Shown in pieces: positions 28,178 to 49,208 of a stretch of 64,000 nucleotides of DNA (within the stretch, counting starts at the first letter, position 1; every line of letters starts with the position of its first letter). The translations under genes and the position numbers were made by a program. The notes under the pieces were generated by a model. The model made no database searches. It was not told the origin of the DNA and saw only the letters and a program-made list of their open reading frames with translations. This stretch comes from Gaiellaceae bacterium (GTDB taxonomy: Bacteria; Actinomycetota; Thermoleophilia; Gaiellales; Gaiellaceae), in the NCBI GenBank assembly GCA_036522595.1, contig DATDFL010000288.1, forward strand, positions 10,414-74,413. The letters are read 5' to 3'.

Positions 28178-29128
28178 CTACGAGCGCTCCGGCTCGGCGG
28201 CTTTCGCGCGGCCAATGATCTCTCGCAGCCGCAGCGTCCTCAACATCAGGAAGATCACGAGGGCCCCGATCGCCACATTGAAAATCGTGACCGCTACGTA
28301 CTGACCGACGCTGAAGGCGAGCAGGCGCGAGGTCGGCGCCTGCCCGTGCAGGATCGCGACCAGGAACCCTTGCTTCGTCCCGGCGCCGCCCGGGGAGAAC
28401 GGCAGCAGCGTCGAGAGGCTGTCCACGACCTGGCAGAGCAGCGCGTTGTGGATCGTCGCGTGCACGTGGAAGGCCTTCAGGAACCAGTAGAGCGATGCGA
28501 TCCGCAGGACCCAGCTCAAGAGCTGCCAGCTCGCGACCTCACGCAGATAGCGCCGCCGGTCGCGGAGGATTGCGAAGCCCCGGCCGAACCGCTGCTTCAG
28601 GTCGGCGTTCTGCGCGAGCCTCCACGAGAGCCAGATCACAGCGAGCGTGACCGCCGCAACGACCGTCGCCGTGGTCTTGCCGTGATCGAGGAGCCAGCCC
28701 CAGTCGAAGGCAGGCGTGTGGATGCTCGGAACCACGCCCTGGGAGAGCGCCCAGAGGAAGAACGCCGTCGCGAGGACAAAGTCGAGCAGCGTCTCCGCGA
28801 CGAGCGTCGTGCCCAGTGTCGTGTAAGTGGTGTCCGGATAGCGGTGCCGGACGAGGTAGAGCTTGACCAGGTCGCCCGCCCGGCCCGGAACGATCGAGTT
28901 GATCCCCACGCCCGCGACATACGCGCCGCAGACCGGCGCCCAGCGGATGCGGATCTCCGGAAACGATGCCCGGAGGATGTTCCGCCAGGCGACTGTCCGC
29001 AGCAGCACCTTGCCGAAGTGGAGCCCGAGTGCGATCGCGAGCGCGCCCCAGCCGACCCCGGCGAGCTCGTCGAAGAACACCTTGACCGCGTGAAAGAACT
29101 CACCCACGTCCTCGTAAACTTGCCTCAT
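28178..29128 (-). CDS. flippase-like / lysylphosphatidylglycerol-synthase TM-domain (UPF0104) membrane protein
   Basis: Family-typical LRTVAWRNIL ... YVAGVGINSIVPGRAGDLVKLYL and about 8 TM segments. The start is uncertain (29128 or 29176). Confidence 0.7.
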   Translation of the reverse strand: MRQVYEDVGEFFHAVKVFFDELAGVGWGALAIALGLHFGKVLLRTVAWRNILRASFPEIRIRWAPVCGAYVAGVGINSIVPGRAGDLVKLYLVRHRYPDTTYTTLGTTLVAETLLDFVLATAFFLWALSQGVVPSIHTPAFDWGWLLDHGKTTATVVAAVTLAVIWLSWRLAQNADLKQRFGRGFAILRDRRRYLREVASWQLLSWVLRIASLYWFLKAFHVHATIHNALLCQVVDSLSTLLPFSPGGAGTKQGFLVAILHGQAPTSRLLAFSVGQYVAVTIFNVAIGALVIFLMLRTLRLREIIGRAKAAEPERS

Positions 29129-31538: not shown

Positions 31539-32550
31539 GTGGCTCGAATCGCTCTCGCCCTGGCCCGAGGAGTTCGGGCTGGGGCGGATGCACGCGCTGC
31601 TGACCGAGCTCGGCGAGCCGCAGCGCGCCTACCCGGCGATCCATGTCGTCGGTACGAACGGCAAGTCGACGGCGACGCGCCGCGCCGCCGCGTTCCTGCA
31701 GCGCGAGGGCCTCAGCGTCGGCGCCTACACCTCGCCCCACGTCGCCGGCTGGAGCGAGCGGATTCAGGTCGACGGCGAGGACGCGAACCTCGAAGGCGCA
31801 CTCGAGCGCGTTCGCGGGGCCGCCGAGCGGGTGGGCGCCACGCAGTTCGAGGTGCTCACAGCGGCCGCGCTCGCGGAGTTCGCGGCGGCCCAGGTCGACG
31901 TTGCCGTCGTCGAGGCCGGCCTCGGCGGACGGCTCGATGCCACGAACGTCCTCGACGCGCGCATCGTCGTGCTCACCAACGTCGGGCTCGACCACACCGA
32001 CGTCCTCGGCGAGACGCGCGAGCAGATCGCGGCCGAGAAGCTGGCAGTCGTCTCGCCCGAGGCGACGCTGATCGTCGGCGAGGCGGAGTGGGGCGGCTGC
32101 TACGCACAGGACGTGGGACGGGCCGCCGCCGAGGCGTTCCTCGGCCGCGAGCTGGACGGGGACGTCGAGATCTCGCTCCCGGGCCGGTTCGACGTCGTCG
32201 GCGACGACGTCTTCTCGGGCGCGCACAATCCAGCCGGGATCGAATGGCTCCTCGAGCGCCTGCCCCGAAACGACTACACGATCGTCGCGTCGATCCTCGC
32301 GGACAAGCACGCCGCGGAGATGCTGCGCCTGCTGGCGCGGGCCGGCCGGACGCTCATCGCGACCTCGTCGAGGAGCGCGCGCGCACTGCCCGCCGACGAG
32401 CTCGCGCGCGCCGCCGAGCCGTTCTTCGACTCCGTCGGAGTGGAGGCCGATCCCGAGCGGGCGCTCGACCGCGCCGAGAGCCCCGTCCTCGTCACCGGCT
32501 CGCTGTACCTGCTCTCGGACCTCTCCGTCCGCCTCCAGCGCATACCATGA
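31522..32550 (+). CDS. folC: folylpolyglutamate synthase / dihydrofolate synthase
   Basis: Mur-ligase P-loop HVVGTNGKSTATR, YTSPHV and EAGLGGRLDATNV. The classic valS-folC adjacency is present. The start is uncertain (31522 or 31471). Confidence 0.88.
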   Translation: MRSPLEWLESLSPWPEEFGLGRMHALLTELGEPQRAYPAIHVVGTNGKSTATRRAAAFLQREGLSVGAYTSPHVAGWSERIQVDGEDANLEGALERVRGAAERVGATQFEVLTAAALAEFAAAQVDVAVVEAGLGGRLDATNVLDARIVVLTNVGLDHTDVLGETREQIAAEKLAVVSPEATLIVGEAEWGGCYAQDVGRAAAEAFLGRELDGDVEISLPGRFDVVGDDVFSGAHNPAGIEWLLERLPRNDYTIVASILADKHAAEMLRLLARAGRTLIATSSRSARALPADELARAAEPFFDSVGVEADPERALDRAESPVLVTGSLYLLSDLSVRLQRIP

Positions 32551-32660
32551 GAAAACTCGGCGAGAAGCTGAGCGTCTTCGCAGTCGCCGCGGTCGTCGTC
32601 CTGATGATCGTCGGCCTCGCGTTTGGCGCCGGGTATCTCGTCGGAAAGGTCCTCCTCTGA
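32547..32660 (+). CDS. possible 37-aa single-TM micro-protein translationally coupled to folC
   Basis: ATGA overlap with the folC stop. MRKLGEKLSVFAVAAVVVLMIVGLAFGAGYLVGKVLL is one clean hydrophobic helix. Confidence 0.45.
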   Translation: MRKLGEKLSVFAVAAVVVLMIVGLAFGAGYLVGKVLL

Positions 32661-33189
32661 CGGAGGGGTTGCGACGCTAGCCGACAACGGAATCTTCGAT
32701 TTCTTCAGTTCCAGCACGTGGGCTGTGATCCGGAACTTGTCGCTGTTCGTGGTCGCGGTCTTCTGGCTGTCGGTCGCGTTCTGGGTTTTCAAGGATGCGC
32801 GCCGCCGGATCGAAGATCCCTGGCTCGTCGGCATGTCGACGGTGCTGGGGCTCGTGCCGTTCATCGGCCCGCTGATCTACATGCTCTTCCGGCCGCCCGA
32901 GTACCTCGAGGACGTGCGGGAGCGTGAGCTCGAGATCAAGGCGATGGAGGAACGGCTCTCCCGGCGCGACCTGCACTGCCCCGTCTGCCGCGCCGACGTC
33001 GATCCCGCATTCCTCGTCTGCCCGGTCTGCACCACGCGCCTGCGCCAGTCGTGCCGGAACTGCAAGGCGCCGCTCGAGGCGCTCTGGCAGGTCTGCCCGT
33101 ACTGCGAGACCGCGGTCGAGCCGGCCGCCGTGGAGCAGCTCGACCAGACGCAGGCCTTGGCGCCCCCGCGGCGCGAGCGCCGCGCTTAG
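32623..33189 (+). CDS. membrane-anchored double zinc-ribbon protein (PLD-N-terminal-like TM hairpin)
   Basis: LFVVAVFWLSVAFWVFKDARRR ... LGLVPFIGPLIYMLFRPP, then CPVC..CPVC and CRNC..CPYC. Confidence 0.65.
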   Translation: MAPGISSERSSSDGGVATLADNGIFDFFSSSTWAVIRNLSLFVVAVFWLSVAFWVFKDARRRIEDPWLVGMSTVLGLVPFIGPLIYMLFRPPEYLEDVRERELEIKAMEERLSRRDLHCPVCRADVDPAFLVCPVCTTRLRQSCRNCKAPLEALWQVCPYCETAVEPAAVEQLDQTQALAPPRRERRA

Positions 33190-33213
33190 GCGTCGCTCGC
33201 GATGCCGTCATCA

Positions 33214-33240
33214 GGACGTGCGGGCTTTGCCCGTGCGTCC
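33214..33240 (+). terminator. hairpin after the zinc-ribbon gene
   Basis: GGACGTGCGGGC-TTT-GCCCGTGCGTCC forms 12 bp, including two G-T pairs. Confidence 0.4.
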
Positions 33241-33264
33241 GTCTGAAATGACCGGTCGATCCGC

Positions 33265-33293
33265 TGCGAAGACAGCCGTCCAGCTCTTAGACT
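33265..33293 (+). promoter_or_regulatory. putative ndk promoter (CTGCGA-18 nt-TAGACT), predicting a near-leaderless mRNA
   Basis: TAGACT at 33288-33293 ends 9 nt before the ndk ATG (33303). No SD lies between them. Confidence 0.35.
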
Positions 33294-33302
33294 CGGCGCG
33301 GC

Positions 33303-33710
33303 ATGGCAGCCGAGCGGACGCTGGTCCTGATCAAGCCTGACGCGATGCGGCGGCAGCTCGCGGGCGAGATCCTCGCGCGCTTCGAGCGCCGGGGCCTCCT
33401 CGTGCGCGAGGCGAAGCTTTTGACCGTGGATCGCGGTCTCGCGGAGACGCACTACGCCGAGCACGCGGAGAAGCCGTTCTTCGGCGAGCTCGTCGAGTTC
33501 ATCACCTCGGGGCCGACGCTGGCGCTCGTCCTCGAGGGCGAAGGCGCAATCGCGACCGTGCGCCGGACAATGGGCGCGACCAATCCGGCCGACTCGGAGC
33601 CCGGCTCGATCCGCGGCGACTTCGCGCTCTCGATGCCCGACAACCTCGTCCACGGCTCCGACTCCCCCGAGTCGGCCGGGCGCGAGATCGGGCTCTGGTT
33701 CGGTGGCTGA
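33303..33710 (+). CDS. ndk: nucleoside-diphosphate kinase
   Basis: [35 protein letters not shown] and NLVHGSDS (catalytic His). Confidence 0.97.
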
Positions 33711-33733
33711 GGCGGTCGCTTGCGACGCCGATA

Positions 33734-34591
33734 ATGGAGGCCGTGCCCGCTTGGCCGGCGCGGCCGTTTAACGCACTGTCTGGGATGACGAACAAAGACT
33801 CAGCTCGCCGCGACCTCGCCTCTGAGCCGGATTACGTCGCGGTCAACCGCGAGGGCTGGACGCAGGCGAACGCGGAGTACACAGACCGGCAGGCAGAGGG
33901 CGCCTGGGCCCAGGAGGAGATCACGTGGGGCAAGTGGTCGATCCCGGAGCGCGAGGTGCAGATCCTTCCCGACTTCACGGGTGTGGACGTCGTCGAGCTC
34001 GGCTGCGGCACCGGGTACTTCGGCTCCTGGCTGAAGCGGGCCGGCGCGCAACGCGTCGTCGGCGTCGACGTCACGCCCGCGCAGCTCGAAACCGCTCGCA
34101 GGCTGAACGACCAGCATGGCCTCGGGCTGGAGCTCGTCGAGGCAAACGCGGAGGAGACCGGGTTGCCGGGCGAGTCCTTCGACGTGGCCTTCTCAGAGTA
34201 CGGCGCCTCGATCTGGTGCGACCCGGCGAAGTGGATCCCCGAGGCGGCGCGCCTCCTGCGGCCGGGCGGTGAGCTCATCTTCATGCGGGGGGCGACGCTG
34301 CAGCTGCTCTGCATGCCGGACACCGGCCCGGTCAGCGAGCGGCTCGTGCGCCCGCAGAAGGGCCTCTACAAGCTCGAGTGGTACGACGACGATCCCGGCG
34401 TCGAGTTCCACCCGGGCTTCGGCGAGATGTTCCGGATCCTCCGCGAGAACGGCTTCGAGCTGCTCGACTTCCGCGAGCTCTACGCGCCCGAGGACGCCGT
34501 CGACCACGAGTACTACGACACGGTTCCAGCCGCTTGGGCCAAGCAGTGGCCCGACGAGGAGATTTGGCGGCTCCGCCTGCGCCCCCGCTGA
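33734..34591 (+). CDS. class I SAM-dependent methyltransferase
   Basis: Motif I VVELGCGTGYFGSWL and a post-I acidic residue VVGVDVT. An alternative start lies at 33785 (MTNKD). Confidence 0.8.
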   Translation: MEAVPAWPARPFNALSGMTNKDSARRDLASEPDYVAVNREGWTQANAEYTDRQAEGAWAQEEITWGKWSIPEREVQILPDFTGVDVVELGCGTGYFGSWLKRAGAQRVVGVDVTPAQLETARRLNDQHGLGLELVEANAEETGLPGESFDVAFSEYGASIWCDPAKWIPEAARLLRPGGELIFMRGATLQLLCMPDTGPVSERLVRPQKGLYKLEWYDDDPGVEFHPGFGEMFRILRENGFELLDFRELYAPEDAVDHEYYDTVPAAWAKQWPDEEIWRLRLRPR

Positions 34592-35133
34592 TCCTCGCCT
34601 CGACGTCGCCGCGGCGGCGGGAGATCCTCGAGCAGCTGCGGATCCCATTCGAGGTGGTGGCACCGCAGTACGAGGAGGTCTCGGGAGACCCCGTCGAGCA
34701 CGCCGTGGGTAAGGCAAGGTCGGTCGGGCCGTTCGACGAGCGGCCGGTGCTCGGCTGCGACACGGAGGTGATCTGCGAGGGGCGGGTCTACGGGAAGCCC
34801 GAGAACGAGGCGGCCGCGGAGGAGATGCTCGATTCGCTTTCGGGCAGGACGCACGAGGTCGTCTCGGGGCTCGCGCTGATCACGCCGGCGTGGGAGGAAG
34901 TGCACCGCGAGGTGACGCAGGTGGCGTTCCGCCCGCTGGACGCGCGCGAGCTTGCGCACTACCTCGCGAGCGGCGAGTGGGAAGGCCGCGCCGGCGCGTA
35001 CGCGATCCAGGGGCTCGGCGCGTCGCTGGTCGAGCGGATCGAGGGCGACTACCTGAACGTCGTCGGCCTGCCGGGTGCGCTGCTCGTCCGGCTGCTCGCG
35101 GAACGCTTCCCAGGCACCTACGGATTCGGTTAA
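34588..35133 (+). CDS. maf: Maf-like nucleoside-triphosphate pyrophosphatase (septum formation protein)
   Basis: The conserved N-terminus LILASTSPRRREIL begins exactly at a CTG that overlaps the upstream TGA (CTGA). Canonical alternatives are TTG 34564 and GTG 34546. GCDT, GKP and AGAYAIQG motifs are present. Confidence 0.8.
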   Translation: MILASTSPRRREILEQLRIPFEVVAPQYEEVSGDPVEHAVGKARSVGPFDERPVLGCDTEVICEGRVYGKPENEAAAEEMLDSLSGRTHEVVSGLALITPAWEEVHREVTQVAFRPLDARELAHYLASGEWEGRAGAYAIQGLGASLVERIEGDYLNVVGLPGALLVRLLAERFPGTYGFG

Positions 35134-35145
35134 AAGACTCGGGTC

Positions 35146-37587
35146 GTGAGGCGCGAGCTTCCGGCCGGGACCGTGACCTTCCTCTTCACCGACGTCGAGG
35201 CATCGACGCAGCTGCTGCACGGCCTCGGCGAAGAGCGCTACGCGGAGGCGCTCGCGGAGCACCGCCGCGTGCTGCGAGATGCCTTTGGCCACCACGGCGG
35301 CGTTGAGGTCGACACCCAGGGCGACGCCTTCTTCGTCGCCTTCGCGACCGCGCCGAGCGCGATCGCTGCCGCGTGCGAGGCCCAGGAGGCCCTGAAGGTC
35401 CCCGTGCGAATGGGCCTCCACACCGGCACGCCCCTCGTGACCGACGAGGGCTACGTCGGGACCGATGTTCACCGAGCCGCGCGGATCGCCGCAGCCGGCC
35501 ACGGACGGCAGGTCCTCGTCTCCGCATCGACCGCTTCCCTCCTCGAGCCAAGTAACAGTCTGTTACTTGACCTCGGGGAGCACCGCCTCAAGGACCTAAG
35601 CGCTCCCGAGCGGATCTTTCAGCTCGGCGAGGAGGAGTTTCCTCCACTCAAGACGCTCTACCGGACGAACCTTCCGGTGCCGGCGACGCCGTTCCTGGGC
35701 CGCGAGCAGGAGCTGGCGCAGGTCGTGGAGCTGCTCGTCGGCACGCGACTACTGACGCTCACCGGGCCGGGCGGAACCGGCAAAACCAGGCTCGCGTTGC
35801 AGGCCGCCGCCGCGAGCTCGGACCGCTACCCCGACGGCGTGTTCTGGGTGCCGCTGGCGTCCCTTCGCGACCCACGGCTCGTACTCGAGCAGGCCGCGCA
35901 GGCCGTCGGTGCTAGGAACGGGCTCGCCGAGCATGTCGCGGACAAACGCCTTCTGCTTCTACTCGACAACTTCGAGCACCTCATCGAGGCGGCAACCGAC
36001 CTCGCCGCGCTCACGGCCTCCTGCCCGAAGCTCCAGCTGCTCGTCACGAGCCGCGAGGTCCTGCGCCTGCCAGGGGAGCAGGTTTACCCCGTGCCGCCGC
36101 TCGAGGCCGAAGATGGAATGCAGTTCTTCCTCGCCCGCGCGCGGGAGGCCGACCCGAGCTTCGAGCCGGACGAGGCCGTGCCCGAGGTCTGCGCGCGATT
36201 GGAGCACTTGCCGCTCGCCCTCGAGCTCGCCGCGGCGCGCGTTCGGCTGCTCTCCCCGGCCCAGCTGCTCGAGAGGCTCACAGGCCGCCTCGACTTGCTC
36301 AAGGCCGGCCGCGGCGTCGATCCTCGCCAACACACGCTGAGGGCCACGATCGAGTGGTCGCACGACCTTCTCGACGCCGACGAGCAACGCCTGTTCGCCC
36401 GCCTTGGAGTGTTCGCCGGAGGCTGCACGCTCGAGGCAGCCGAGGGGATCTGCAATGCCGACCTCGACACGCTTCAGTCGCTCGTCGACAAGAGCCTCGT
36501 CCGCGTCCGCAAGGGGAATCGCTTCTGGATGCTCGAGACGATCCGCGAGTATGCGCTCGACCGGCTCCAGGCCTCGGGCGAGGGGCGCGACCTGTGGGAT
36601 CGCTACGCCGACTTCTTCCTCGCCCTTGCGGAGGAAGCCGAGCCGCTCATGCAGGAGAACTCGCCGGAATGGCTCGACCGAGCCGGGGACGAATTGCCGA
36701 ATATGCGCGGGGCACTCGACCATTTCGAGGCGTCCGGGCGGAACCAAGACGTGCTTCGGCTCGCTGGCGCGATCGGGCCTCTCTGGGGGGTCAGGGGGTC
36801 GATGACCGAAGGCGCTCGGCGGCTCGAAGCCGCGCTCGCCGCGGACGATCGGCCCACCTCGGCGCGCGCTAAGGCGCTCACGGCCGCTGCCAATCTCGCG
36901 CTGGGACAGGGCGACGACGAGAGGGTCGACGAGCTTGCGGGGGCGGCGCTTCCGCTTCACCGCGCCAGCGGGAACGAGTGGTTCGTCGTGGAGTCCTTGC
37001 TCCTCATGGCGCATGCGGCCGCAGATCGGGAAAACTTTGAGCGCGCACGCGACCTGGCCGAGGAAGCCGCAGAAGCGACGAAGTCTGACCCGCACTCGGC
37101 ACAGGCGATCCAAGCGACTTGGCAGCTCGGCTGGGCCCATGGCGGACTCGGTGAGCGTGAGCAAGGACGCGAGCTCTACGAAGAGGCGCTTCGACGGGCT
37201 CGCGCCGCAGGCTCGACGCACCTGCAGTCTCTCGTGCTGAGCGGGCTTTCCCGTCTTCTGATCACCGACGGTCGGCCGGCTGACGCTCTTCCACTGCTCC
37301 TCGAATCCTTTCGCCTGAACGTGGCCACGGGTGATCGCTGGCGCCTCGCGATCGACGCAACGCGCATCGCCCGCGCGCTGGCAGCGCTCGGCGAGGCGAG
37401 GAGAGCGGCTCGGCTGCTTGCGAGCGGCAGGGCCTTGTTCGAAGAGATCGGCGGCGCGCCCAGCTGGCGAGTGGGCGAGGACCAAGAGACGCTTGCGCTC
37501 CTCAGGGAGCAGCTGACCGAGGCCGAGCTCGCAGAGGAAACCGAACTCGGGTCGACGCTTTCTCCGGAGGAGATCCTCGGTGAGTGA
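35146..37587 (+). CDS. class III nucleotidyl cyclase + NB-ARC/AAA-type ATPase + TPR signalling protein
   Basis: VTFLFTDVEASTQL, TQGDAFFVAF, RMGLHTG..GTDVHRAARI, Walker A GPGGTGKTRL, hhhhDNFEH, then TPR-like repeats. Confidence 0.85.
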   Translation: MRRELPAGTVTFLFTDVEASTQLLHGLGEERYAEALAEHRRVLRDAFGHHGGVEVDTQGDAFFVAFATAPSAIAAACEAQEALKVPVRMGLHTGTPLVTDEGYVGTDVHRAARIAAAGHGRQVLVSASTASLLEPSNSLLLDLGEHRLKDLSAPERIFQLGEEEFPPLKTLYRTNLPVPATPFLGREQELAQVVELLVGTRLLTLTGPGGTGKTRLALQAAAASSDRYPDGVFWVPLASLRDPRLVLEQAAQAVGARNGLAEHVADKRLLLLLDNFEHLIEAATDLAALTASCPKLQLLVTSREVLRLPGEQVYPVPPLEAEDGMQFFLARAREADPSFEPDEAVPEVCARLEHLPLALELAAARVRLLSPAQLLERLTGRLDLLKAGRGVDPRQHTLRATIEWSHDLLDADEQRLFARLGVFAGGCTLEAAEGICNADLDTLQSLVDKSLVRVRKGNRFWMLETIREYALDRLQASGEGRDLWDRYADFFLALAEEAEPLMQENSPEWLDRAGDELPNMRGALDHFEASGRNQDVLRLAGAIGPLWGVRGSMTEGARRLEAALAADDRPTSARAKALTAAANLALGQGDDERVDELAGAALPLHRASGNEWFVVESLLLMAHAAADRENFERARDLAEEAAEATKSDPHSAQAIQATWQLGWAHGGLGEREQGRELYEEALRRARAAGSTHLQSLVLSGLSRLLITDGRPADALPLLLESFRLNVATGDRWRLAIDATRIARALAALGEARRAARLLASGRALFEEIGGAPSWRVGEDQETLALLREQLTEAELAEETELGSTLSPEEILGE

Positions 37588-38170
37588 CGTCGTCCGCGGC
37601 CCGGACGGGAAGCCGCGTTGCGGTTGGGGCGACAGCTCCGACCAGTACCGCGACTACCACGATACGGAGTGGGGGCGGCCGGTCCTCGACGAGCAAGGCC
37701 TCTACGAGCGGCTCTGCCTGGAGCTGATGCAGAGCGGCCTCTCCTTCGCGCTGATCCTGCGCAAGCGCGACGGCATGCGCGAGGCCTTTGCGGGATTCGA
37801 TCCAGAGAAGGTCGTCGGCCTCGACGTGGAGCGATTGCTCAAGGACGAGCGCGTGATCCGCAACCGGGCGAAGCTCGAGGCGATCGTCCAGAACGCGAAG
37901 GCGACCGTCGCCATGCGCGACGAGACGCCGCTCCCCGAGCTGATCTGGAGCTTCCGCCGCCGCGACAAGCGCGCGCCGCGCAACTACGGCGAGATGGTGT
38001 CGTTCAACGACGAGTCGAAGGAGCTGGCGAAGGAGCTGAAGCGCCGAGGCTTCTCGTTCGTCGGCCCGACGACGGTCTACTCGACGCTGCAAGCGGTCGG
38101 CGTCGTCAACGACCACATGGCCGGCTGCTTCGTCCGGTCCGAGGTGGAGGCCGAGCGCCGCCGCCTATAG
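37580..38170 (+). CDS. tag: DNA-3-methyladenine glycosylase I
   Basis: CGWGDS..YRDYHDTEWGRPV, LCLELMQSGLS and VGPTTVYSTLQAVGVVNDH. The GTG start overlaps the cyclase stop by 8 nt (GTGAGTGA). Confidence 0.92.
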   Translation: MSDVVRGPDGKPRCGWGDSSDQYRDYHDTEWGRPVLDEQGLYERLCLELMQSGLSFALILRKRDGMREAFAGFDPEKVVGLDVERLLKDERVIRNRAKLEAIVQNAKATVAMRDETPLPELIWSFRRRDKRAPRNYGEMVSFNDESKELAKELKRRGFSFVGPTTVYSTLQAVGVVNDHMAGCFVRSEVEAERRRL

Positions 38171-38216
38171 ACAGCGCTCGTGCGATCTGCGACGATCCTC
38201 TCGGGAGGGGATCGGG

Positions 38217-40184
38217 ATCAAGACCCGCCGGGCTCTCAGCGCAGCAGTCGTCGTCGGGTTCGTGCTTGCGCTCGCCGGCGCCGCCGTCTCTGCGTCCCAG
38301 CGGCCGGCGGTCTCGTCGGCAGGGACGTTCCGAGCGGACGTCGTCGGCGCGTCGTGGTCGCCAGACCCCGCCTTGGCCTATCTCACGACCGCCTGGCAGC
38401 TCGAGTACGCAACGTGCGCGAAGCTCGTCAACTACCCGGATGCGCCGCCTCCCGAAGGATCGCGACTCAGGCCCGAGATCGCGACGGCGATGCCGGAGGT
38501 CACTGACGGAGGGCTGACCTACACCTTCCAGATCCGAAACGACTACGCCTTCTCGCCTCCCGCGACCGGCGTCGTGACTGCGGAAAGCATGAAGTGGACG
38601 TTCGAGCGGACGCTGAGCCCGAGCCTGGCTGGGCCGGGCGCCGCGTTCTACACGAACATCGTCGGGGCCCAGGAATACATGAGCGGCCAGGCGCAGCACA
38701 TCAGCGGCATCGCGGCTAGTGGGGACGCCCTCACGATCCACCTGATCCAGCCGCAGGGCGACTTCCTGACCCTCCTCGCAATGCCATTCCTCTGCGCCGT
38801 CCCGACGACGCTTCCCGCAGTGGAGCAGACGACGGGGCCCATCCCTTCCGCCGGCCCCTACTACATCTCCGAGGCGGTGGTGAACGACCACTTCACGGTC
38901 AGCCGCAATCCGAACTACACGGGCCCGAGGCCGCAGCCGTTCGACGTGTTCGATTACCACTTCGGCGGCAACGAGGAGACCGTCCGGCAGCTGGTGGAGT
39001 CCGGGGTTTCCGACGACGGCTTCGGCGTCGGCCCGTGGGACGAGCTCAACCAGCTCTACGGCCCGGACAGCGACGCTGCCCACAACGGATACCAGCAGTG
39101 GTTCCCGGGTCCCTTCCAGTGCACCGGTTACCTGCCGCTGAACGCGGAGCGGCCGACGTTCGCGGACGTGAACATGAGGAAGGCCGTCAACTACGCCATC
39201 GATCGTGCCGCGCTTTCGGCGACCGTTTCTCCCTACCAGGCGCCCACGACCGACCAGTACCTACCGCAGGGGATGCCGGGATACGAAGACATTGCCGCAT
39301 ATCCCGACCACCCTGACATCGAGCAGGCTCGCGACCTGGCAGGTTGGCATCCGGGCGATCCTCTGCGTCCGCTCACCGTCTACTACCGGACGAACAGCAC
39401 GGCCAACATTGAGCAGTACCAGCTCATCCGGGATGAGCTGGCGCAGATCGGCTTCGACGTGACCGGTGTGGGCTTCGCCGGTGGCGACATCTACACGGCG
39501 ATCGGCACGCGGGGCGAGCCCTTCGACCTCGCGGTCAGCGTCGGCTGGTGCGGGGACTACTACGACCCCGCGAACTTCATGCAGCTCTTCGACGGGTCGA
39601 CGATCCACGACGGTGGCGGCAATCTCGACTCCTCGTACTTCAACGACCCCGTCTTCAACGATCGAATCCACGCAGCCGAGCAGCTCGTCGGCGACGAGCG
39701 CTACGACACTTTCCAGCAGATCGAGCACGACCTCGTCCTTGACGCAGCTCCGTGGGCGGCGTGGCGGCTGTATGGCACCAGCGAGTTCACGTCCCACCGG
39801 ATCGGCTGCCAGCTCTGGCAGTACGCCTACAGCAGCATGGACATCGTCCACCTCTGCCTGCGGTCACCACCGCCCCCACCACCTCCGCCTCCGCATCCAC
39901 CACCGCCGCCACCGCCACCAACCCCGCCGCCGCCGCCACCAGCCCCGCCGCCGCCTCCACCGCCCCCGTCGTTCAATCCGCCGAAATGCGTCGTCCCGAA
40001 TGTGCTCCACCTGAAGCTCGCCAAGGCGAAGTCCCGGCTGAAGGCGCGCCATTGCCGCGCGGGCACGATCAGCCGCAAACACTCGTCTCGCGCAGACCGG
40101 GGCCGCGTGATCAAGCAAGTCCCGAAGGCCAGCCGAAAGAAGCGCCCGAACGGCTTCAGGGTCCGGCTCACGATCGGCCGCTAG
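38217..40184 (+). CDS. orphan family-5 (peptide/nickel-type) solute-binding protein fused to a polyproline linker and a PASTA-like C-terminal domain
   Basis: SBP_bac_5-like body (PDPALAYLTTAWQLEYATCAKLVNYPD ... DHFTVSRNPNYTG ... MRKAVNYAIDR). Then 30 Pro in 33 residues, then CVVPNVLHLKLAKAKSRLKARHCRAGTI..GRVIKQVPKA..GFRVRLTIG. The first canonical start is GTG 38262. An ATC at 38217, 8 nt after GGAGG, would add a KTRRALS twin-arginine n-region. Confidence 0.8.
   Translation: MKTRRALSAAVVVGFVLALAGAAVSASQRPAVSSAGTFRADVVGASWSPDPALAYLTTAWQLEYATCAKLVNYPDAPPPEGSRLRPEIATAMPEVTDGGLTYTFQIRNDYAFSPPATGVVTAESMKWTFERTLSPSLAGPGAAFYTNIVGAQEYMSGQAQHISGIAASGDALTIHLIQPQGDFLTLLAMPFLCAVPTTLPAVEQTTGPIPSAGPYYISEAVVNDHFTVSRNPNYTGPRPQPFDVFDYHFGGNEETVRQLVESGVSDDGFGVGPWDELNQLYGPDSDAAHNGYQQWFPGPFQCTGYLPLNAERPTFADVNMRKAVNYAIDRAALSATVSPYQAPTTDQYLPQGMPGYEDIAAYPDHPDIEQARDLAGWHPGDPLRPLTVYYRTNSTANIEQYQLIRDELAQIGFDVTGVGFAGGDIYTAIGTRGEPFDLAVSVGWCGDYYDPANFMQLFDGSTIHDGGGNLDSSYFNDPVFNDRIHAAEQLVGDERYDTFQQIEHDLVLDAAPWAAWRLYGTSEFTSHRIGCQLWQYAYSSMDIVHLCLRSPPPPPPPPPHPPPPPPPPTPPPPPPAPPPPPPPPSFNPPKCVVPNVLHLKLAKAKSRLKARHCRAGTISRKHSSRADRGRVIKQVPKASRKKRPNGFRVRLTIGR
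39867..39965 (+). repeat. polyproline-coding C-rich tract (P9-H-P8-T-P5-A-P8)
   Basis: Read directly: 99 nt of CCN codons interrupted by only three other codons. Confidence 0.95.
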
Positions 40185-41258
<1,074 letters not shown>

Positions 41259-41419: not shown

Positions 41420-42355
41420 GTGCCAAGGAACCGCGACGCACGACTTGCGGTCTTGGGGTCACCCGTTCCTCGCTCCAGGCCCGCCGGGTACTCCTCGCGT
41501 AGTGCCACCGCTCTCCGGCGGCGGCTCGTCGCAGGGGTGCTCGTCTTCGTTTCGATCGTGTTGATCACGATCTACTTCCGCGAGCCTTCAGGCGGGAGCC
41601 TGCACGGCATCCAGAGCGGCGGTGCGGCGGTTCTGCGCCCCTTCGAGGTCGGTGCGGAGCGTGTCGCGAGGCCTTTCCGTGACGCCTACGGGTGGTTCGC
41701 CGGGCTCGTCCACGCGAAGTCCGAGAACGCGCGCCTGCGCAGCGAGGTCGACCAGCTCAGCCGGGAGGTGATCGCGAACCAGAACGCGGTCCAGGCGAAC
41801 AGCGACCTGCGGCGCCAGCTCCACTACGTCGGCCTGCCGACGTTTCCGAGCGGCTACGACCCCGTGAACACGGAGATCATCGGCCGCCCCGCGAGCGAGT
41901 TCCAGCAGCAGGTCGACATCGCGGCGGGCTCGGTCAACGGGATCCGAAAGAACGACCCCGTCGTCAGCCCGGACGGCCTGGTCGGGCTCGTCACCGAGGT
42001 CGCCCACAACCAGGCGCAGGTGACGCTCCTGACCGATCCCGGGCTGAACGTCTCCGCGTACGACCTGACCACGAAGGCATCGGGGCTGGTCGACCACGGC
42101 CAGGGGCCGGGGACGCTGATCCTCGACCGGGTGCAGAAGTCCCAGACGGTCCGCGCGGGCGAATGGATCGTGACCTCGGGCTTCAAGTCGCACGGCCTCT
42201 CGTCGCTCTACCCAAAGGGAATCCCGATCGGCGTGGTCTCGGGCGCGTCGCTGAGCGACCTCGACCTCTACTGGCAAATCCAGGTGCGGCCACTGGTCGA
42301 CTTCGGGTCGCTCCAGTCCGTGACCGTGCTCGTCCCGAAAACCCGCCCCCGGTGA
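41420..42355 (+). CDS. mreC: rod shape-determining protein MreC
   Basis: Position between mreB and mreD, an N-terminal TM, a coiled-coil ENARLRSEVDQL, and beta-barrel motifs GIRKNDPVVSPDGLVGLV and SLYPKGIPIG. Confidence 0.9.
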   Translation: MPRNRDARLAVLGSPVPRSRPAGYSSRSATALRRRLVAGVLVFVSIVLITIYFREPSGGSLHGIQSGGAAVLRPFEVGAERVARPFRDAYGWFAGLVHAKSENARLRSEVDQLSREVIANQNAVQANSDLRRQLHYVGLPTFPSGYDPVNTEIIGRPASEFQQQVDIAAGSVNGIRKNDPVVSPDGLVGLVTEVAHNQAQVTLLTDPGLNVSAYDLTTKASGLVDHGQGPGTLILDRVQKSQTVRAGEWIVTSGFKSHGLSSLYPKGIPIGVVSGASLSDLDLYWQIQVRPLVDFGSLQSVTVLVPKTRPR

Positions 42356-42885
42356 GCCGCTACCTGATCGAGCCCGCGAAGGTCTGCGCGGTGATCTTCG
42401 TCGCAGCGATCCTGCAGGTGACGATCTTCTCGTCGGTCGACATCCTCGGCGGAACGCCCGACGTCCTCCTCCTGACGCTGATGGGCGTCGCGCTGCTGCG
42501 CGGCTCGATCTACGGCGCGGCTGCCGGCTTCGCGGCCGGCCTGATCGTCGACACCGCGAACCTCGCGACCCTGGGCGTGACGTCGCTGCTCCTGACGATC
42601 GCCGGTTACTGGATCGGGCGCTACGGCGAGACGACCGGCCGCGACCGTGCCCACGCGCCGTTCGTGTCGGTCGCGGTCGCGACGATCCTCGTCCAGTTCG
42701 GCGCGCTGTTCCTGCACTACATGCTCGGCGACGCCGTGTCGGCGCGGGTCGTCCTGCTCGACGCGCTCTTCCCGAAGGTCGCGCTGAACCTGCTCCTGAC
42801 TCTTCCGGTCTACGCGCTCGTGCGGCGCGTGCTCGCGTGGGCGACCGAGCCGGAGGGCGCGAGGGAGGTGCAGCTCCTTGGCTAG
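42352..42885 (+). CDS. mreD: rod shape-determining protein MreD
   Basis: GTGA overlap with the mreC stop and a 5-TM small protein (PDVLLLTLMGVALLRG ... GLIVD). Confidence 0.85.
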   Translation: MSRYLIEPAKVCAVIFVAAILQVTIFSSVDILGGTPDVLLLTLMGVALLRGSIYGAAAGFAAGLIVDTANLATLGVTSLLLTIAGYWIGRYGETTGRDRAHAPFVSVAVATILVQFGALFLHYMLGDAVSARVVLLDALFPKVALNLLLTLPVYALVRRVLAWATEPEGAREVQLLG

Positions 42886-44929
42886 CACCGGCGCGCGCGC
42901 TCGTAGGCCCGGCTCCAACCGCTTCCTGCCGCCCGACCCGCGCGTCGAGGAGCCGTACCGCTTCACGCCGCAGCTCGCCCTGAGGCTCGGGATCCTCGGC
43001 GCCGTTGCGCTGGTCGCGTTCGGGATCCTCTTCTTCCGGCTCTGGGCGCTGCAGGTGCTCTCGGGCCCGCAGTACCTGCAGGCGGCGCTCGACAACCAGG
43101 TGCGCTCGGTCCGCATCGAGGCGCAGCGCGGCGAGATCCTCGACCGGAACGGCGTGCCGCTGGTCGCGACCGTGCCGGGCACGGCCGTCCAGCTCTGGCC
43201 CTCCGACATGGCCAAGAGCTCCTGGCACGCGCAGCGCGACGAGCTCCGGCGGCTCTCGCGGGTGCTCAAGGTCCCGGTTCGCCAGATGCTGGCCGACATG
43301 AGCAAGCACAAGGGCGACCCCGTGACGCCGGTCGTCGTGCGGGAATCGGTCAACCGCGACGCGCCGATCCTCTACCTGAGCGAGCATGCGGAGGAGTTCC
43401 CGGGTGTGCAGATCGTGCACACGTACCTGCGGAGCTACCCGCAGGGCACGCTGGCCGCCCAGCTGCTCGGCTACGTCTCGGAGATCTCGCCCCCGCAGCT
43501 CAAAGACCTCCAGCGCAAGGGTTACGAGCCCGGCGACAAGATCGGCCAGGCCGGGCTCGAGGCGACCTACGACTCGTACTTGCGCGGGCGGCCCGGCCTG
43601 AAGCAGCTGCGCGTCGACTCGCTCGGCCGCGCGCGGAGCCAGCTCGTCCTCAAGCGCGACCCGGCACCAGGCGAGTCGATCCAGACGACGCTCGACATCA
43701 AGCTGCAGCGCGTCGCCCAGCAGGCGATCCAGGACGGGATCCAGCTCGCGCGGAACAACCATCACTGGGCCGCCAATGCCGGCTCGATCGTCGCCCTGAA
43801 CCCGAACGACGGCTCGGTCCTCGCCATGGCGTCCTACCCGAGCTACAACCCCGCGGTCTACACAGGCCAGGTGACGACGAAGCGCCTTGCCTCCTACGGC
43901 CTGACGCCGTCGACCGCCGAGGCGCACAACTACCCATCGCTGAACCGCGCGATCAGCGGCCTCTATCCGGCCGGCTCGACCTTCAAGCCCGTCACGGCCC
44001 TGGCCGCGCTGCAGACGCACACCATCTCTCCGTCGACGGTGCTCGAGTGCACGGGCTCATACACCGTCTACAAAAGCGACGGGACGGTTGCCCAGGTCTT
44101 CCACAACGTCGACCCCGGGGCTTTCGAGGCGATGACGCTCCCGACCGCGCTCGGCCAGTCGTGCGACACCTGGTTCTACCAGGTGGGCGACATGTTCTAC
44201 AACGCGCCCCCGAGCGCAGGCCATCCGTTGCAGGCCTGGGCAGCGCGGTTCGGCATCGGGCACAAGACCGGCCTCGATGTCGGCCCGGAGTCGGCGGGAT
44301 TGCTCCCGACCCCCGAGTGGCGCCACCAGCGGTTCACGGCGAAGACCGATCCGCGCAACTGGCAGATCGACCGCCTCTGGAAGCCTGGTGACTCGATCCA
44401 GCTCGCGATCGGCCAGAAGGACCTGCTCGTGACGCCGCTGCAGATGACGCGCTTCTACGCGCTGCTCGCGAACGGCGGCAAGCTCGTCAAGCCGCATCTC
44501 GTCGAGGACGTCCAGGAGGGCGGCGGCGGGCGTTCCGCGCCGCGGGTCGTTCACCGCTTCACGGCTCCGGCGCCGGTCTCGGTCGGGCTCGACCCGAGCA
44601 ACCTCGCGGTCGTGCAGGACGGGCTCTACCAGGCGACCCACGCTTCCTACGGAACCGCCTACAACGTGTTCGGCAACTACCCCATCCCGATCGCCGGCAA
44701 GACCGGGACGGCGCAGAAGATCGTCAGCATCCCGGGCGCGGGTTTCCTCGGTGAGCAGGATCAGTCCTGGTGGTGCGGCTACGGCCCGGTGAACGAGCCA
44801 GAGCCGCCGCAGATCGTCGTGTGCGCGCTGATCGAGAACGGCGGCTTCGGCGCCGAGGCGGCCGCTCCCGCAGCGCTGCAGGTCTTCAAGCAGTTCTTCA
44901 GGGAGCAGGGAGGCGCTGCGGGCGGATGA
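42878..44929 (+). CDS. mrdA: penicillin-binding protein 2 (elongation transpeptidase)
   Basis: TTG start overlapping the mreD stop. Motifs: SGPQYLQAALDNQVR, GSTFKP (SxxK), SCD and KTGTAQ. Confidence 0.93.
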   Translation: MASTGARARRPGSNRFLPPDPRVEEPYRFTPQLALRLGILGAVALVAFGILFFRLWALQVLSGPQYLQAALDNQVRSVRIEAQRGEILDRNGVPLVATVPGTAVQLWPSDMAKSSWHAQRDELRRLSRVLKVPVRQMLADMSKHKGDPVTPVVVRESVNRDAPILYLSEHAEEFPGVQIVHTYLRSYPQGTLAAQLLGYVSEISPPQLKDLQRKGYEPGDKIGQAGLEATYDSYLRGRPGLKQLRVDSLGRARSQLVLKRDPAPGESIQTTLDIKLQRVAQQAIQDGIQLARNNHHWAANAGSIVALNPNDGSVLAMASYPSYNPAVYTGQVTTKRLASYGLTPSTAEAHNYPSLNRAISGLYPAGSTFKPVTALAALQTHTISPSTVLECTGSYTVYKSDGTVAQVFHNVDPGAFEAMTLPTALGQSCDTWFYQVGDMFYNAPPSAGHPLQAWAARFGIGHKTGLDVGPESAGLLPTPEWRHQRFTAKTDPRNWQIDRLWKPGDSIQLAIGQKDLLVTPLQMTRFYALLANGGKLVKPHLVEDVQEGGGGRSAPRVVHRFTAPAPVSVGLDPSNLAVVQDGLYQATHASYGTAYNVFGNYPIPIAGKTGTAQKIVSIPGAGFLGEQDQSWWCGYGPVNEPEPPQIVVCALIENGGFGAEAAAPAALQVFKQFFREQGGAAGG

Positions 44930-46673: not shown

Positions 46674-49208
46674 TTGCTTCGATTGTTCCGACGGCGCAAG
46701 CCGTCCCGTGACGAGCGCGCCGCCCAGCCGAGCGCGCCGCCTACCCCGACCCAGCCCGTAACGACCAAGCCCGCCACGCAGGCGGGCGCAACCGAGACCT
46801 CACCAGCACGCAAGCGTCGACGGCGCGGAAGCCGTGGCGGTCGAAACCGCAAGCGCCCGGCCGGTGCCGCGACGCAAACCCAGCCCGAGCAGCCCACGGC
46901 CAAGGCAGAGACGAAGCCCGAGCGGAAGTCGGCCGAGCGAAAGCCGGCCGAGCGCAAGCAACGGCAACCGCGCCGAAAGCCGCCGCCGCGCCGCCCGCCG
47001 CTCCCACCCGCGAAGCGCGAGCTCCTGATCTCCGTCGACGTCGGCGAGCAGCGCGTCGCCGTGCTCGAGGACGACCGCGTCGCCGAGGCCTACCTCGAGC
47101 GGCCGGAGCGCCGCTCGATCGCGGGGAACATCTACCTGGGCAGCGTCGACAACGTCCTGCCCGGGATGGAGGCGGCGTTCATCGAGATCGGCCTCGAGAA
47201 GAACGGCTTCCTGTACGTGGACGAGGTGGTCGTCCCCGAGCTCGAGGGGCGCTCCCACGGGCGCAAGATCCAGGACCTGCTGAGCCGCGGCCAGCAGGTG
47301 CTCGTCCAGGCGGTCAAGGATCCGATGAAGTCGAAGGGCGCGCGGCTGACCACGGAGATCTCGCTGCCGGGCCGCTTCGTCGTCTTCGTCCCGAGCGGCG
47401 AGGGCCTCGGCGTCTCGCGCCGGCTCGAGGACGCCGAGCGAACGCGCCTACGGGACATCCTCAAGAACCTCGACGTGAAGAAGGGCGGCGTGATCGTCCG
47501 CACCGCGGCCGAGGGCGCTTCCGCCGAGGACATCGAGCGCGACCTCGTCTTCCTGCAGCGCCTCTGGAAGACGATCGAGACGCGTGCGAAAAGCGCCAAG
47601 GCACCCGCTCTCGTCTACCAGGAGTCCGAGCTCCCGCTCCGTGTCGTGCGCGACCTCTTCACGGACGACTTCGAGAAGGCGGTGGTCGACCAGGAGCGCA
47701 CCTTCAAGCGCATCGTCGGGTACCTGAAGAAGACCTCGCCGCACATGGTCGAGCGCGTCCAGCGCCACCGCGAGAAGACGCCGCTGATGGAGGCGCGCGG
47801 AGTCGACGAGGAGATCCGCTCCACGCTCTCCCGACGCGTCGACCTGCCGTCCGGCGGCTACCTCGTCTTCGACTACGCCGAGGCGTTCACGGTGATCGAC
47901 GTCAACACGGGCCGCTTCGTCGGCTCGCGCGGCAAGTCGGCAGGCGGGCGGCTCGAGGACACGATCACGAAGAACAACCTCGAGGCGGTCAAGGAGGTCG
48001 TCCGCCAGCTGCGGCTGCGCGACATCGGCGGGATCATCGTCATCGACTTCATCGACATGGCGAACCCGAAGAACCGCGCGACGGTGGAGGAGGCGCTGAA
48101 GACCGAGCTCGAGCGCGACCGGACGAAGACCTACGTCGTCGAGATCTCGCCGCTCGGCCTCGTCGAGATGACGCGCCAGAACGTCACCGACGGGCCGCGC
48201 GAGATCCTGACGCGCAAGTGCACGATCTGCGGCGGCGACGGGGTCGTGCTCTCGGAGGCGTCGGCCGCGGTCGACGCTGAGCGTCATCTGCGCGAGCTCG
48301 CGGCCAGCGCGCCGCGCACGAAGGCGTTCAAGGTCGAGCTCAACGCCAAGGTCGCGAGCATCCTGATCGGCCCGGGCGCCGCTCGCCTTGCGGACATCGA
48401 AGAGGAGACGAAGCGGCGGTTCCTGGTCGAGTCGCGCGAGGACGCGCCGACCAACCACTTCGAGGTGCTCGGCAAGGGCACCTTCGAGAGCCTCGCGCCG
48501 GAAGGCGCGGCCCGGGAGGGCAAGCAATTCGACCTGAAGCTCGTCGAGGTCGGCCTGCACGACCTGAACGCCGGAGTCGGCTCGCTGGACGGGCTGGCCG
48601 TCTGCGTCGGCGGCGGCGCCAAGCTCGTCGGCAAGAAGGCGAAGGTGCGGATCGAACGCGTGGTCAACGGCACCGCCTACGCGACTCTCGTCGGAGGCGC
48701 CAAGGCTCCCGAGGCGCCGATCACCGCGGAGGGTGAGGCCGAGAAGCCGACCCGCAAGCCTCCTGCGCGGAAGGGCAAGACGGCCGTGAAGGAGCCGGAC
48801 GCAGTCGAAGAGGAAACCGTCGACGCCGATGCCGAAGCCGAGGCCGAGGCCGAAGCGCAGGCCGAAGCCGAGGCCGAGGCCGAAGAGACCGCGGCGCCCG
48901 GGGAAGCGACGCCCAAGAAGAAGACGCGCCGAGGCTCGCGCGGAGGCCGCCGCCGGAAGAAGAAGCCTGCCACTGCGACTGCCGCGGAGACGAACGGCGA
49001 GGCCCCGAAGATCCATCTTCCGGACCCTGGCCTCGGCCGCGAGGAGCCGGAGCCGGAGCCAGAGCCAGAGCCGGAGCCCAAAGCCGAGGCTGTCGCCCAG
49101 GACGGTGCCGAGGCGCCGAAGCCCAAAAAGAAGACGCGCCGAGGCTCGCGCGGAGGGCGCCGCCGGAAGAAGAAGCCGGCGGAGACGAGCTCAACGCCGT
49201 CCGAGTAA
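46674..49208 (+). CDS. rne: ribonuclease E/G family endoribonuclease with Arg-rich N- and C-terminal extensions
   Basis: S1 domain IAGNIYLGSVDNVLPGMEAAFIEIG and catalytic core VIDVNTG and GGIIVIDFIDM. Low-complexity tails contain three RRGSRGGR(R/N)RK motifs. Confidence 0.92.
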   Translation: MLRLFRRRKPSRDERAAQPSAPPTPTQPVTTKPATQAGATETSPARKRRRRGSRGGRNRKRPAGAATQTQPEQPTAKAETKPERKSAERKPAERKQRQPRRKPPPRRPPLPPAKRELLISVDVGEQRVAVLEDDRVAEAYLERPERRSIAGNIYLGSVDNVLPGMEAAFIEIGLEKNGFLYVDEVVVPELEGRSHGRKIQDLLSRGQQVLVQAVKDPMKSKGARLTTEISLPGRFVVFVPSGEGLGVSRRLEDAERTRLRDILKNLDVKKGGVIVRTAAEGASAEDIERDLVFLQRLWKTIETRAKSAKAPALVYQESELPLRVVRDLFTDDFEKAVVDQERTFKRIVGYLKKTSPHMVERVQRHREKTPLMEARGVDEEIRSTLSRRVDLPSGGYLVFDYAEAFTVIDVNTGRFVGSRGKSAGGRLEDTITKNNLEAVKEVVRQLRLRDIGGIIVIDFIDMANPKNRATVEEALKTELERDRTKTYVVEISPLGLVEMTRQNVTDGPREILTRKCTICGGDGVVLSEASAAVDAERHLRELAASAPRTKAFKVELNAKVASILIGPGAARLADIEEETKRRFLVESREDAPTNHFEVLGKGTFESLAPEGAAREGKQFDLKLVEVGLHDLNAGVGSLDGLAVCVGGGAKLVGKKAKVRIERVVNGTAYATLVGGAKAPEAPITAEGEAEKPTRKPPARKGKTAVKEPDAVEEETVDADAEAEAEAEAQAEAEAEAEETAAPGEATPKKKTRRGSRGGRRRKKKPATATAAETNGEAPKIHLPDPGLGREEPEPEPEPEPEPKAEAVAQDGAEAPKPKKKTRRGSRGGRRRKKKPAETSSTPSE

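Follow-up and report, generated by a model that had tools for sequence, protein, structure and literature searches.

A peptide-type binding protein with a polyproline-PASTA tail, encoded beside mreB in a Gaiellaceae bacterium

Introduction

Does a gene that ends just short of mreB take part in cell elongation? The question is raised by a stretch of 64,000 nucleotides from a Gaiellaceae bacterium (GenBank assembly GCA_036522595.1, contig DATDFL010000288.1, positions 10,414 to 74,413), referred to here as the window. On its + strand, an open reading frame (ORF) of 655 codons plus stop at 38217..40184 encodes, according to its translation and Pfam, a solute-binding protein (SBP) of family 5 that continues through a polyproline linker into a PASTA domain. 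An earlier interpretation made from the letters alone (the sequence-only reading) held it plausible that the product is a sensor of muropeptides or cell-wall peptides, tethered and attached to the elongasome locus. The follow-up described here bears out the domain assignments and the orphan status of the gene, but not that function. With a probability of roughly 0.6, the gene encodes an envelope-tethered orphan peptide-type binding protein that has no functional link to mreB.

The protein would be an exported SBP of family 5, cluster C, that carries a portable module, namely a rigid polyproline spacer followed by one strongly cationic PASTA domain. This module may act as a non-covalent tag for retention or display at the cell envelope, a role suggested because the module recurs at the end of many unrelated secreted proteins in the group, and to be expected because the PASTA fold is peptidoglycan-associating and the domain here is terminal, is reused, has an extreme positive charge and stands on a rigid spacer. 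In this view, PASTA would attach to peptidoglycan, lipid II or some other anionic polymer of the wall, with the passenger kept about 10 nm away by the proline rod. At about 3.1 Å per residue, a polyproline II helix of forty prolines reaches roughly 12 nm. The body would capture a peptide or amino-acid derivative and pass it, as an orphan receptor, to an Opp/Dpp-type permease encoded elsewhere. Its position beside mreB would stem from a lineage-specific relocation into the variable interval between maf and mreB.

To our knowledge, PASTA domains have been studied almost only as sensors on penicillin-binding proteins (PBPs) and Ser/Thr kinases. Here, a PASTA variant recurs as a stereotyped C-terminal tag on unrelated secreted proteins of an abundant, almost uncultured soil lineage. 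This portable tag of polyproline and cationic PASTA, which may be a wall-anchoring system of a little-known group, is the more interesting point of the locus; the tight 24-nt adjacency to mreB, which turned out not to be conserved, calls for caution. Should the tag anchor proteins to the wall, it would constitute a new class of wall-binding module, give a handle on predicting the Gaiellales surface proteome and provide a small portable tag of possible use in surface display. For SBPs, it would represent a third way of retaining a receptor in a monoderm-type envelope, after lipid anchors and permease fusion.

A genuine PASTA domain behind a family 5 binding protein

The body (38322..39860, + strand) is placed in family 5, cluster C, by Pfam and by sequence and fold matches in the PDB. 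Pfam SBP_bac_5 (PF00496) covers residues 84-462 with 170.4 bits (cut-off 32.4), in agreement with the Opp/Dpp/MppA-type assignment made earlier from the letters. NCBIfam returned weak, sub-threshold matches of the body to the NikA, OppA and DppA models (for OppA, 50.5 bits against a cut-off of 947) and no match of the protein to an MppA model. The nearest solved structure by sequence is 8UPI (E 1.5e-33), followed by OppA, OppA2, OppAIV, PrgZ, GbpA, DppA and NikA. A fold search ranks 8UPI first and the open form of MppA second, ahead of OppA2, GbpA, OppA, DppA, YliB and NikA, at about 15-23% identity. All top fold neighbours in the PDB are cluster C SBPs, and the predicted fold is bilobal.

Behind the body, the linker RSPPPPPPPPPHPPPPPPPPTPPPPPPAPPPPPPPPSFNPPK (39861..39986, + strand, as read from the sequence) holds 33 prolines in 42 residues and leads into a 65-residue, hyper-cationic tail (39987..40181, + strand). 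Pfam PASTA (PF03793) matches residues 593-654; it scores 27.6 bits on the full-length protein and 32.9 bits on the tail by itself, the gathering cut-off being 23.2 bits. NCBIfam adds a weak, sub-threshold match to the PASTA region of Stk1-type kinases, and phmmer a match to the PASTA repeats of Staphylococcus aureus Stk1 (3m9g; E 1.6e-7). An AlphaFold2 model of the tail, built with 93 homologous tails as input, reached a mean predicted local distance difference test (pLDDT) score of 88.5, and its elements (H21-30, E33-41, E50-55 and E67-74) amount to one helix and three main strands. A PDB fold search with this model retrieved PASTA domains at all of ranks 1-29, from PrkC/Stk1, StkP, PknB, PBP1, PonA2 and PBP2x, the best match being S. 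aureus PrkC with a template modelling score of 0.75 and a root-mean-square deviation of 1.7 Å. The tail is a real PASTA domain, as the sequence-only reading had supposed. Its context is non-classical, following an SBP5 body here and not a PBP transpeptidase or a Hanks-type kinase. In the AlphaFold2 model of the full-length protein (mean pLDDT 90.6), body and tail form two well-folded domains and the proline linker is of lower confidence.

Two further traits of the tail that had been noted from the letters, its two cysteines and its strongly basic composition, are shared by the homologous modules. The tail contains 21 Lys or Arg against a single Asp or Glu and has an isoelectric point (pI) of about 12; the body is acidic (pI 4.3). 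Net charge in 93 homologous tail modules runs from 12 to 28, with +20.5 as the mean. Cys591 (39987-39989) and Cys613 (40053-40055) are both invariant in 18 aligned modules, and the second is again invariant in the alignment of 93 sequences. The two probably staple the tail through a disulfide, which we infer, as we do the topology of the tail and its presumed binding to the wall. The aligned proteins share one plan: body, in some cases Calx-beta, polyproline, and a tail of the form C-x-VP-x-V...C-x-x-G...Q-x-P...V-x-L.

A tail shared by unrelated secreted proteins

The fusion of the two domains is not confined to one strain. The window protein has 1725 homologues at E <= 1e-5, and in the top 120 of them about 46 combine PF00496 with PF03793. 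Among these double-domain homologues, most possess a Calx-beta domain between body and polyproline and measure about 755 residues. In the window copy, the Calx-beta domain has been cleanly lost, and the polyproline linker replaces the Calx-beta plus polyproline segment of the closest orthologues. A scan of one genome per species yielded 72 SBP loci, and the labels of the source metagenome-assembled genomes are nearly all Actinomycetota, Actinomycetes, Gaiellales, Gaiellaceae or Thermoleophilia. Judged by best hits, which include the soil contig L004 described below, the window most likely comes from a soil-dwelling member of the Gaiellales.

A profile of the tail, run on the fetched loci, detected 33 distinct instances of the module. 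All except two (31/33) end no more than 4 residues from the end of their ORF, and 24 of the 33 come after a segment rich in Pro, in which the longest run counts 44. The passengers include Kelch-repeat proteins, an S8 subtilase with Kelch repeats, CarboxypepD_reg-DUF11-Kelch, PD40 beta-propeller and FG-GAP proteins, as well as SBP5-Calx-beta proteins. So far the module has been seen only in Gaiellales-like Actinomycetota.

One locus, L013 (L013:3-20358; CAWBFX010000003.1), contains six tandem genes that all end in polyproline plus PASTA, four of them with runs of at least 40 Pro. Their products are Kelch-repeat proteins, an S8 subtilase, an SBP5-Calx-beta protein and a CarboxypepD_reg-DUF11-Kelch protein. 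The array looks like a surface-protein island.

One paper mentions PASTA in passing among peptidoglycan-associating modules, in other architectures (PMC7159879). Tentatively, and at somewhat less than even odds, the polyproline rod and its hyper-cationic, Cys-stapled single PASTA domain may form a general, hitherto undescribed system for non-covalent surface anchoring and display in Gaiellales-like Actinomycetota, comparable in function to LysM, SLH or GW modules, which would tether a whole set of exoproteins, among them proteases, Kelch and FG-GAP proteins and SBPs, to peptidoglycan or lipid II at sites of wall synthesis.

Catalogue searches were of limited use for tracing the module. A search of a large protein database with the tail profile gave mainly 'PASTA-only' calls of 60-120 residues, which are uninformative on architectures. 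At least some such calls are fragments of frameshifted genes, as in L150:5581-6345, where the gene is split into a Calx-beta and a PASTA piece. Fragmentation at the polyproline run probably explains many of the 60-120-residue 'PASTA-only' proteins in metagenome catalogues. A search of all cluster representatives matched the PASTA profile to 32,017 of them, but it was dominated by giant repeat proteins and so provides no census of the single C-terminal module. The top matches are giant multi-PASTA proteins, with up to 32 matched stretches in 2187 residues, far from the classical PBP and kinase contexts.

Ligand and transporter

The fold does not narrow the class of ligand, because all the cluster C SBPs have similar scores, with identities of about 20%. 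The protein in 8UPI, MeAmi_SBP, is a binder of L-amino acid amides, and its Trp410 and Asp413 hold the free amine of the ligand, a pair conserved in DppA-type proteins (bioRxiv 10.1101/2024.02.22.581678). In the window protein, W444 (39546-39548) and D447 (39555-39557) align with these two residues. They lie within a GWCGDY motif that matches GWCADY of OppA, and each is at least 90% conserved in 61 homologues. The position of Trp34, which serves amide binding in 8UPI, is occupied by Thr. Since the amine clamp is kept, the ligand is most likely a peptide or an amino-acid derivative whose amino group is free, as judged from the aligned residues. Murein peptides may be among the possible ligands, but nothing favours them. 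The likeness to MppA, which the sequence-only reading named as a member of the family, is no greater than that to OppA, DppA, GbpA or the amino-acid-amide binder, and the high rank of MppA in the fold search reflects its open conformation.

The gene had been called an orphan, and so it is: neither an ABC (ATP-binding cassette) ATPase nor an Opp-type permease was found in the 64-kb window by a scan for Walker A plus LSGGQ or by tblastn with OppB/C/D/F of a related genome. Permease use elsewhere, which the sequence-only reading had named as evidence that would count against it, was found in part. The window copy and its closest orthologues are orphans, but a PASTA-tailed paralogue in L019 (SBP5-IG_AIR9-PASTA) is directly followed by an OppC-like and an OppB-like permease gene, an arrangement that speaks for a possible role of tailed SBP5 proteins in ABC import. 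It is well established that an orphan SBP may work with a permease encoded elsewhere, as Escherichia coli MppA does with OppBCDF. By analogy, the window SBP may use a distant Opp/Dpp-type permease.

Tail-less distant paralogues (34-36% identity) occupy complete oppC-SBP-oppB-oppD-oppF operons. One of these operons (L036:6181-17388) sits amid ATP synthase subunit genes, with the alpha and gamma subunits upstream and a second alpha/beta-family subunit gene, probably beta, downstream. The Opp arrangement recurs in about 12 further loci (L030-L052), and ATP synthase flanks are annotated in L036 only.

The alternative that survives best, an unlikely one, holds that the body has no transport role and is a surface-displayed binding or scavenging protein, for example adhesin-like or a signalling receptor, as other passengers of the tag might be. 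In at least 15 species-representative genomes the orthologues are single genes, divergently flanked and without a permease within 10 kb, and the co-tagged proteins are enzymes and repeat proteins rather than transport parts. Other homologues fuse related SBP5 bodies to BTAD, Trans_reg_C or beta-propellers, which would also suit such a role. The L019 gene order, where a PASTA-tailed SBP5 shares an operon with two permeases, speaks for transport instead, as do the precedent of MppA and OppBCDF, the conserved ligand-amine clamp and the retained closed/open bilobal fold.

Start codon, export and integrity of the gene

The frame is open from 38217 to a TAG stop at 40182-40184. Codon 38217 is ATC, which is non-canonical, and the earliest canonical start in frame is a GTG at 38262. 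Initiation at the GTG would leave the signal peptide without its charged N-region; initiation at the ATC would give the N-terminus KTRRALSAAVVVGFVLALAGAAVSA and, by sequence comparison, a signal peptide like that of the orthologues. A Shine-Dalgarno-like run, GGGAGGGG (38202..38209, + strand, read from the sequence), precedes the ATC with a spacing of 7 nt. It is unchanged in the soil contig L004, which is 99.8% identical. Whether the gene starts at ATC 38217 or GTG 38262 is uncertain.

The putative signal peptide IKTRRALSAAVVVGFVLALAGAAVSA (38217..38294, + strand) resembles orthologue N-termini, its cleavage site being a prediction, and depends on translation from the ATC. It contains an RR pair and no lipobox Cys, so that export could proceed by Sec or Tat.

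These irregularities bear on a second, improbable alternative, that the window copy is a relocated paralogue turning into a pseudogene and has no present function. Besides the lack of a canonical start upstream of the signal peptide, the copy has lost the Calx-beta domain found in all close orthologues and is about 63% identical to the orthologues, which share 70-81% among themselves. Moreover, the gene has been lost in sister lineages, and the copy in L077 lacks its stop codon (see below). Against decay stand an intact frame of 655 codons and a good Shine-Dalgarno-like run correctly spaced from ATC 38217. The window copy also keeps all 35 columns that are invariant in the other 60 sequences, 85 of the 90 columns conserved at >=95% and, in the tail, all 14 such columns. 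Because these conserved columns are kept and both domains model with high confidence, the window copy is judged to be probably functional.

The neighbourhood of mreB

As the sequence-only reading had it, the gene ends 24 nt before the ATG of mreB (40209..41258, + strand), after which come mreC (41420-42355) and mreD, then a PBP2 homologue (42878-44929) and rodA, to 46122. The expectation that this neighbourhood would be conserved was not borne out. In none of the 72 related SBP loci does mreB, mreC or PBP2 lie within 10 kb, and the sole near-exception is L065, a distant paralogue locus whose edge contains a fragment of rodA.

The closest orthologues (53-66% identity to the window protein) occupy a context of their own. 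There the SBP5-Calx-PASTA gene follows dprA, a comM-like Mg-chelatase gene, a hypothetical gene and an N6/N4 DNA methyltransferase gene, and precedes yraN (UPF0102), rplS, lepB and trmD. This order is found in L002/L007, L005, L006, L009, L010, L012, L022, L031, L048, L070 and the metagenome contig L150, with variants in L015, L055, L061, L067 and L071; in L003 and L150, RNase HII also stands after yraN. It is kept in at least 15 species-representative genomes. None of these neighbours, from dprA to trmD, is present in the window.

From the side of mreB, a survey of metagenomes with MreC as the anchor gathered 73 loci. The usual layout is ndk, methyltransferase, maf, in some cases tag, mreB, mreC, mreD and PBP2. 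Directly before mreB stands the tag gene in L078, L082 and L100 and maf in L084, L099, L101 and L102; in other loci the content of the interval between maf and mreB is variable. An SBP-PASTA gene precedes mreB elsewhere only in L077, a contig of the same species with 96.5% nucleotide identity. In that contig (L077:1-120, window 40100-40211) its stop reads TCG, not TAG, and the frame runs 27 nt on into the mreB ATG, with which it is in phase. A sequencing error, a pseudogene or a nominal PASTA-MreB fusion frame could each account for this.

Remnants of the gene mark two sister lineages. In L085 and L086, homology to the window restarts at 40077, leaving only the last 36 codons of the PASTA tail, and L078 retains a remnant of 11 codons, ANGFKVRLIVGR*. 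MreB is 97-99% identical across the loci, and mreBCD remain 97-99% conserved where the SBP gene has decayed. From these comparisons, a PASTA-ended gene appears to have been placed before mreB in one small clade and then lost at least twice, and the adjacency appears to carry no functional link. The interval between maf and mreB is a variable insertion spot. In L085 (5179-5802, - strand) and also in L086, an IS200-like Y1 transposase ORF (PF01797) stands between tag and mreB, in the position expected for the SBP body.

mreB has a conserved upstream element of its own. The stretch GCTAGACTCG (window 40187-40197) occurs at a fixed distance from mreB in 25 of 26 related mreB loci, whichever gene lies upstream. 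It contains a candidate -10 box, TAGACT (40192..40197, + strand), which fits the actinobacterial -10 pattern TANNNT and ends 11 nt before the mreB ATG. In most relatives, no Shine-Dalgarno sequence lies between GCTAGACTCG and the ATG. On this pattern, mreB is probably transcribed from a promoter of its own into an mRNA with no leader or a very short one. A consensus scan for promoters and terminators gave nothing on the + strand, the sigma-70 consensus being of little use at 68% GC.

The weakest alternative is the one first proposed, in which an MppA-like body and a PASTA domain would together read wall fragments for the MreBCD-PBP2-RodA elongasome and feed back on elongation: it can call on the co-oriented genes with their 24-nt gap and no predicted + strand terminator, the same arrangement in L077, the second rank of open-form MppA and a W444/D447 clamp that would suit the free L-Ala amine of murein tripeptide, and it is nevertheless very improbable in view of an adjacency found in 0 of 72 SBP loci and lacking in the greater part of the related mreB loci, a gene decayed to remnants in L078 and L085/L086 beside a well-conserved mreBCD, the separate upstream element of mreB, a generic tail that is also borne by Kelch, protease, FG-GAP and PD40 proteins, and a similarity to MppA (about 20% identity, no NCBIfam match) not above that to OppA, DppA, GbpA, OppA2 or 8UPI.

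A join created in assembly was considered for the polyproline run of the window. Such breaks do occur: the contig L004, from a soil metagenome, matches window 28262-39937 at 99.8% identity and turns chimeric within the polyproline run, its assembly being broken at the long polyproline-coding run (L004:11676-11956). A chimera in the window was rejected, since orthologues share the order SBP, polyproline, PASTA and since L077, L085 and L078 independently join the PASTA tail to mreB. The join is accepted as real.

Points against the envelope-tethered receptor

Several observations weigh against an envelope-tethered orphan receptor that acts independently of mreB. Binding of the wall or of lipid II by this PASTA variant is putative, and some PASTA domains do not bind muropeptides, as in the case of Mycobacterium tuberculosis PonA2. 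The start codon is either non-canonical, or canonical with a truncated signal peptide. No permease lies within 10 kb of the window copy or its closest orthologues. The idea that the PASTA tail substitutes for a lipid anchor gains no support from the contrast with tail-less proteins, as most PASTA-less paralogues in ABC operons are also without a lipobox Cys. Finally, the 24-nt gap and the lack of a predicted terminator on the + strand would still permit read-through into mreB.

Comparison with known systems

Both families, SBP_bac_5 and PASTA, are known; their combination is not described in the literature that was found. A literature search for SBP-PASTA fusions, for PASTA in Gaiella or Thermoleophilia and for PASTA as an anchor retrieved no description. 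In databases such proteins are named only 'ABC transporter substrate-binding protein' or 'beta-lactam-binding protein with PASTA domain'.

The window protein shares with Opp/Dpp/MppA-type SBPs the PF00496 body, the bilobal fold and the Trp/Asp amine-binding pair. It differs from them in having no adjacent permease or ATPase gene, no lipobox and an additional polyproline-PASTA segment, and it is about 20% identical to characterised members. The absence of transporter genes of its own recalls MppA, which works with OppBCDF, but the protein does not appear to be an MppA orthologue and carries an added, putative anchor module.

With the PASTA domains of kinases (PknB, PrkC/Stk1, StkP) and class B PBPs (PBP2x, PBP1), the tail has in common the Pfam family, the fold of one helix and three strands, and a predicted extracytoplasmic C-terminal position. 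Unlike these, it is a single copy that ends a secreted protein which is neither a kinase nor a PBP, combines a net charge near +20 with two invariant Cys, and is preceded by polyproline. Retention is the more likely role of PASTA here, over signalling. As a reused, cationic terminal module with a Pro-rich spacer, the tail resembles LysM, SLH, GW and CWB2 modules, which anchor proteins non-covalently to Gram-positive walls, and the proline-rich, wall-spanning segments of LPXTG proteins. Its PASTA fold is unrelated to those of LysM, SLH, GW and CWB2, and its binding to the wall is presumed from its features.

Other features of the region

Between maf and tag, the window encodes (35146-37587, + strand) an 813-residue protein that combines an adenylate/guanylate cyclase, a STAND-type NTPase and TPR repeats; the gene is absent from most relatives. 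An exact look-up of the window MreB returned no record. Beyond rodA, an ORF at 46674-49208 (+ strand) encodes an RNase E/G-like protein of 844 residues with long, highly charged and repetitive N- and C-terminal tails, which contain EAEA and EPEP runs and a repeated KKKTRRGSRGGRRRKKKPA motif.

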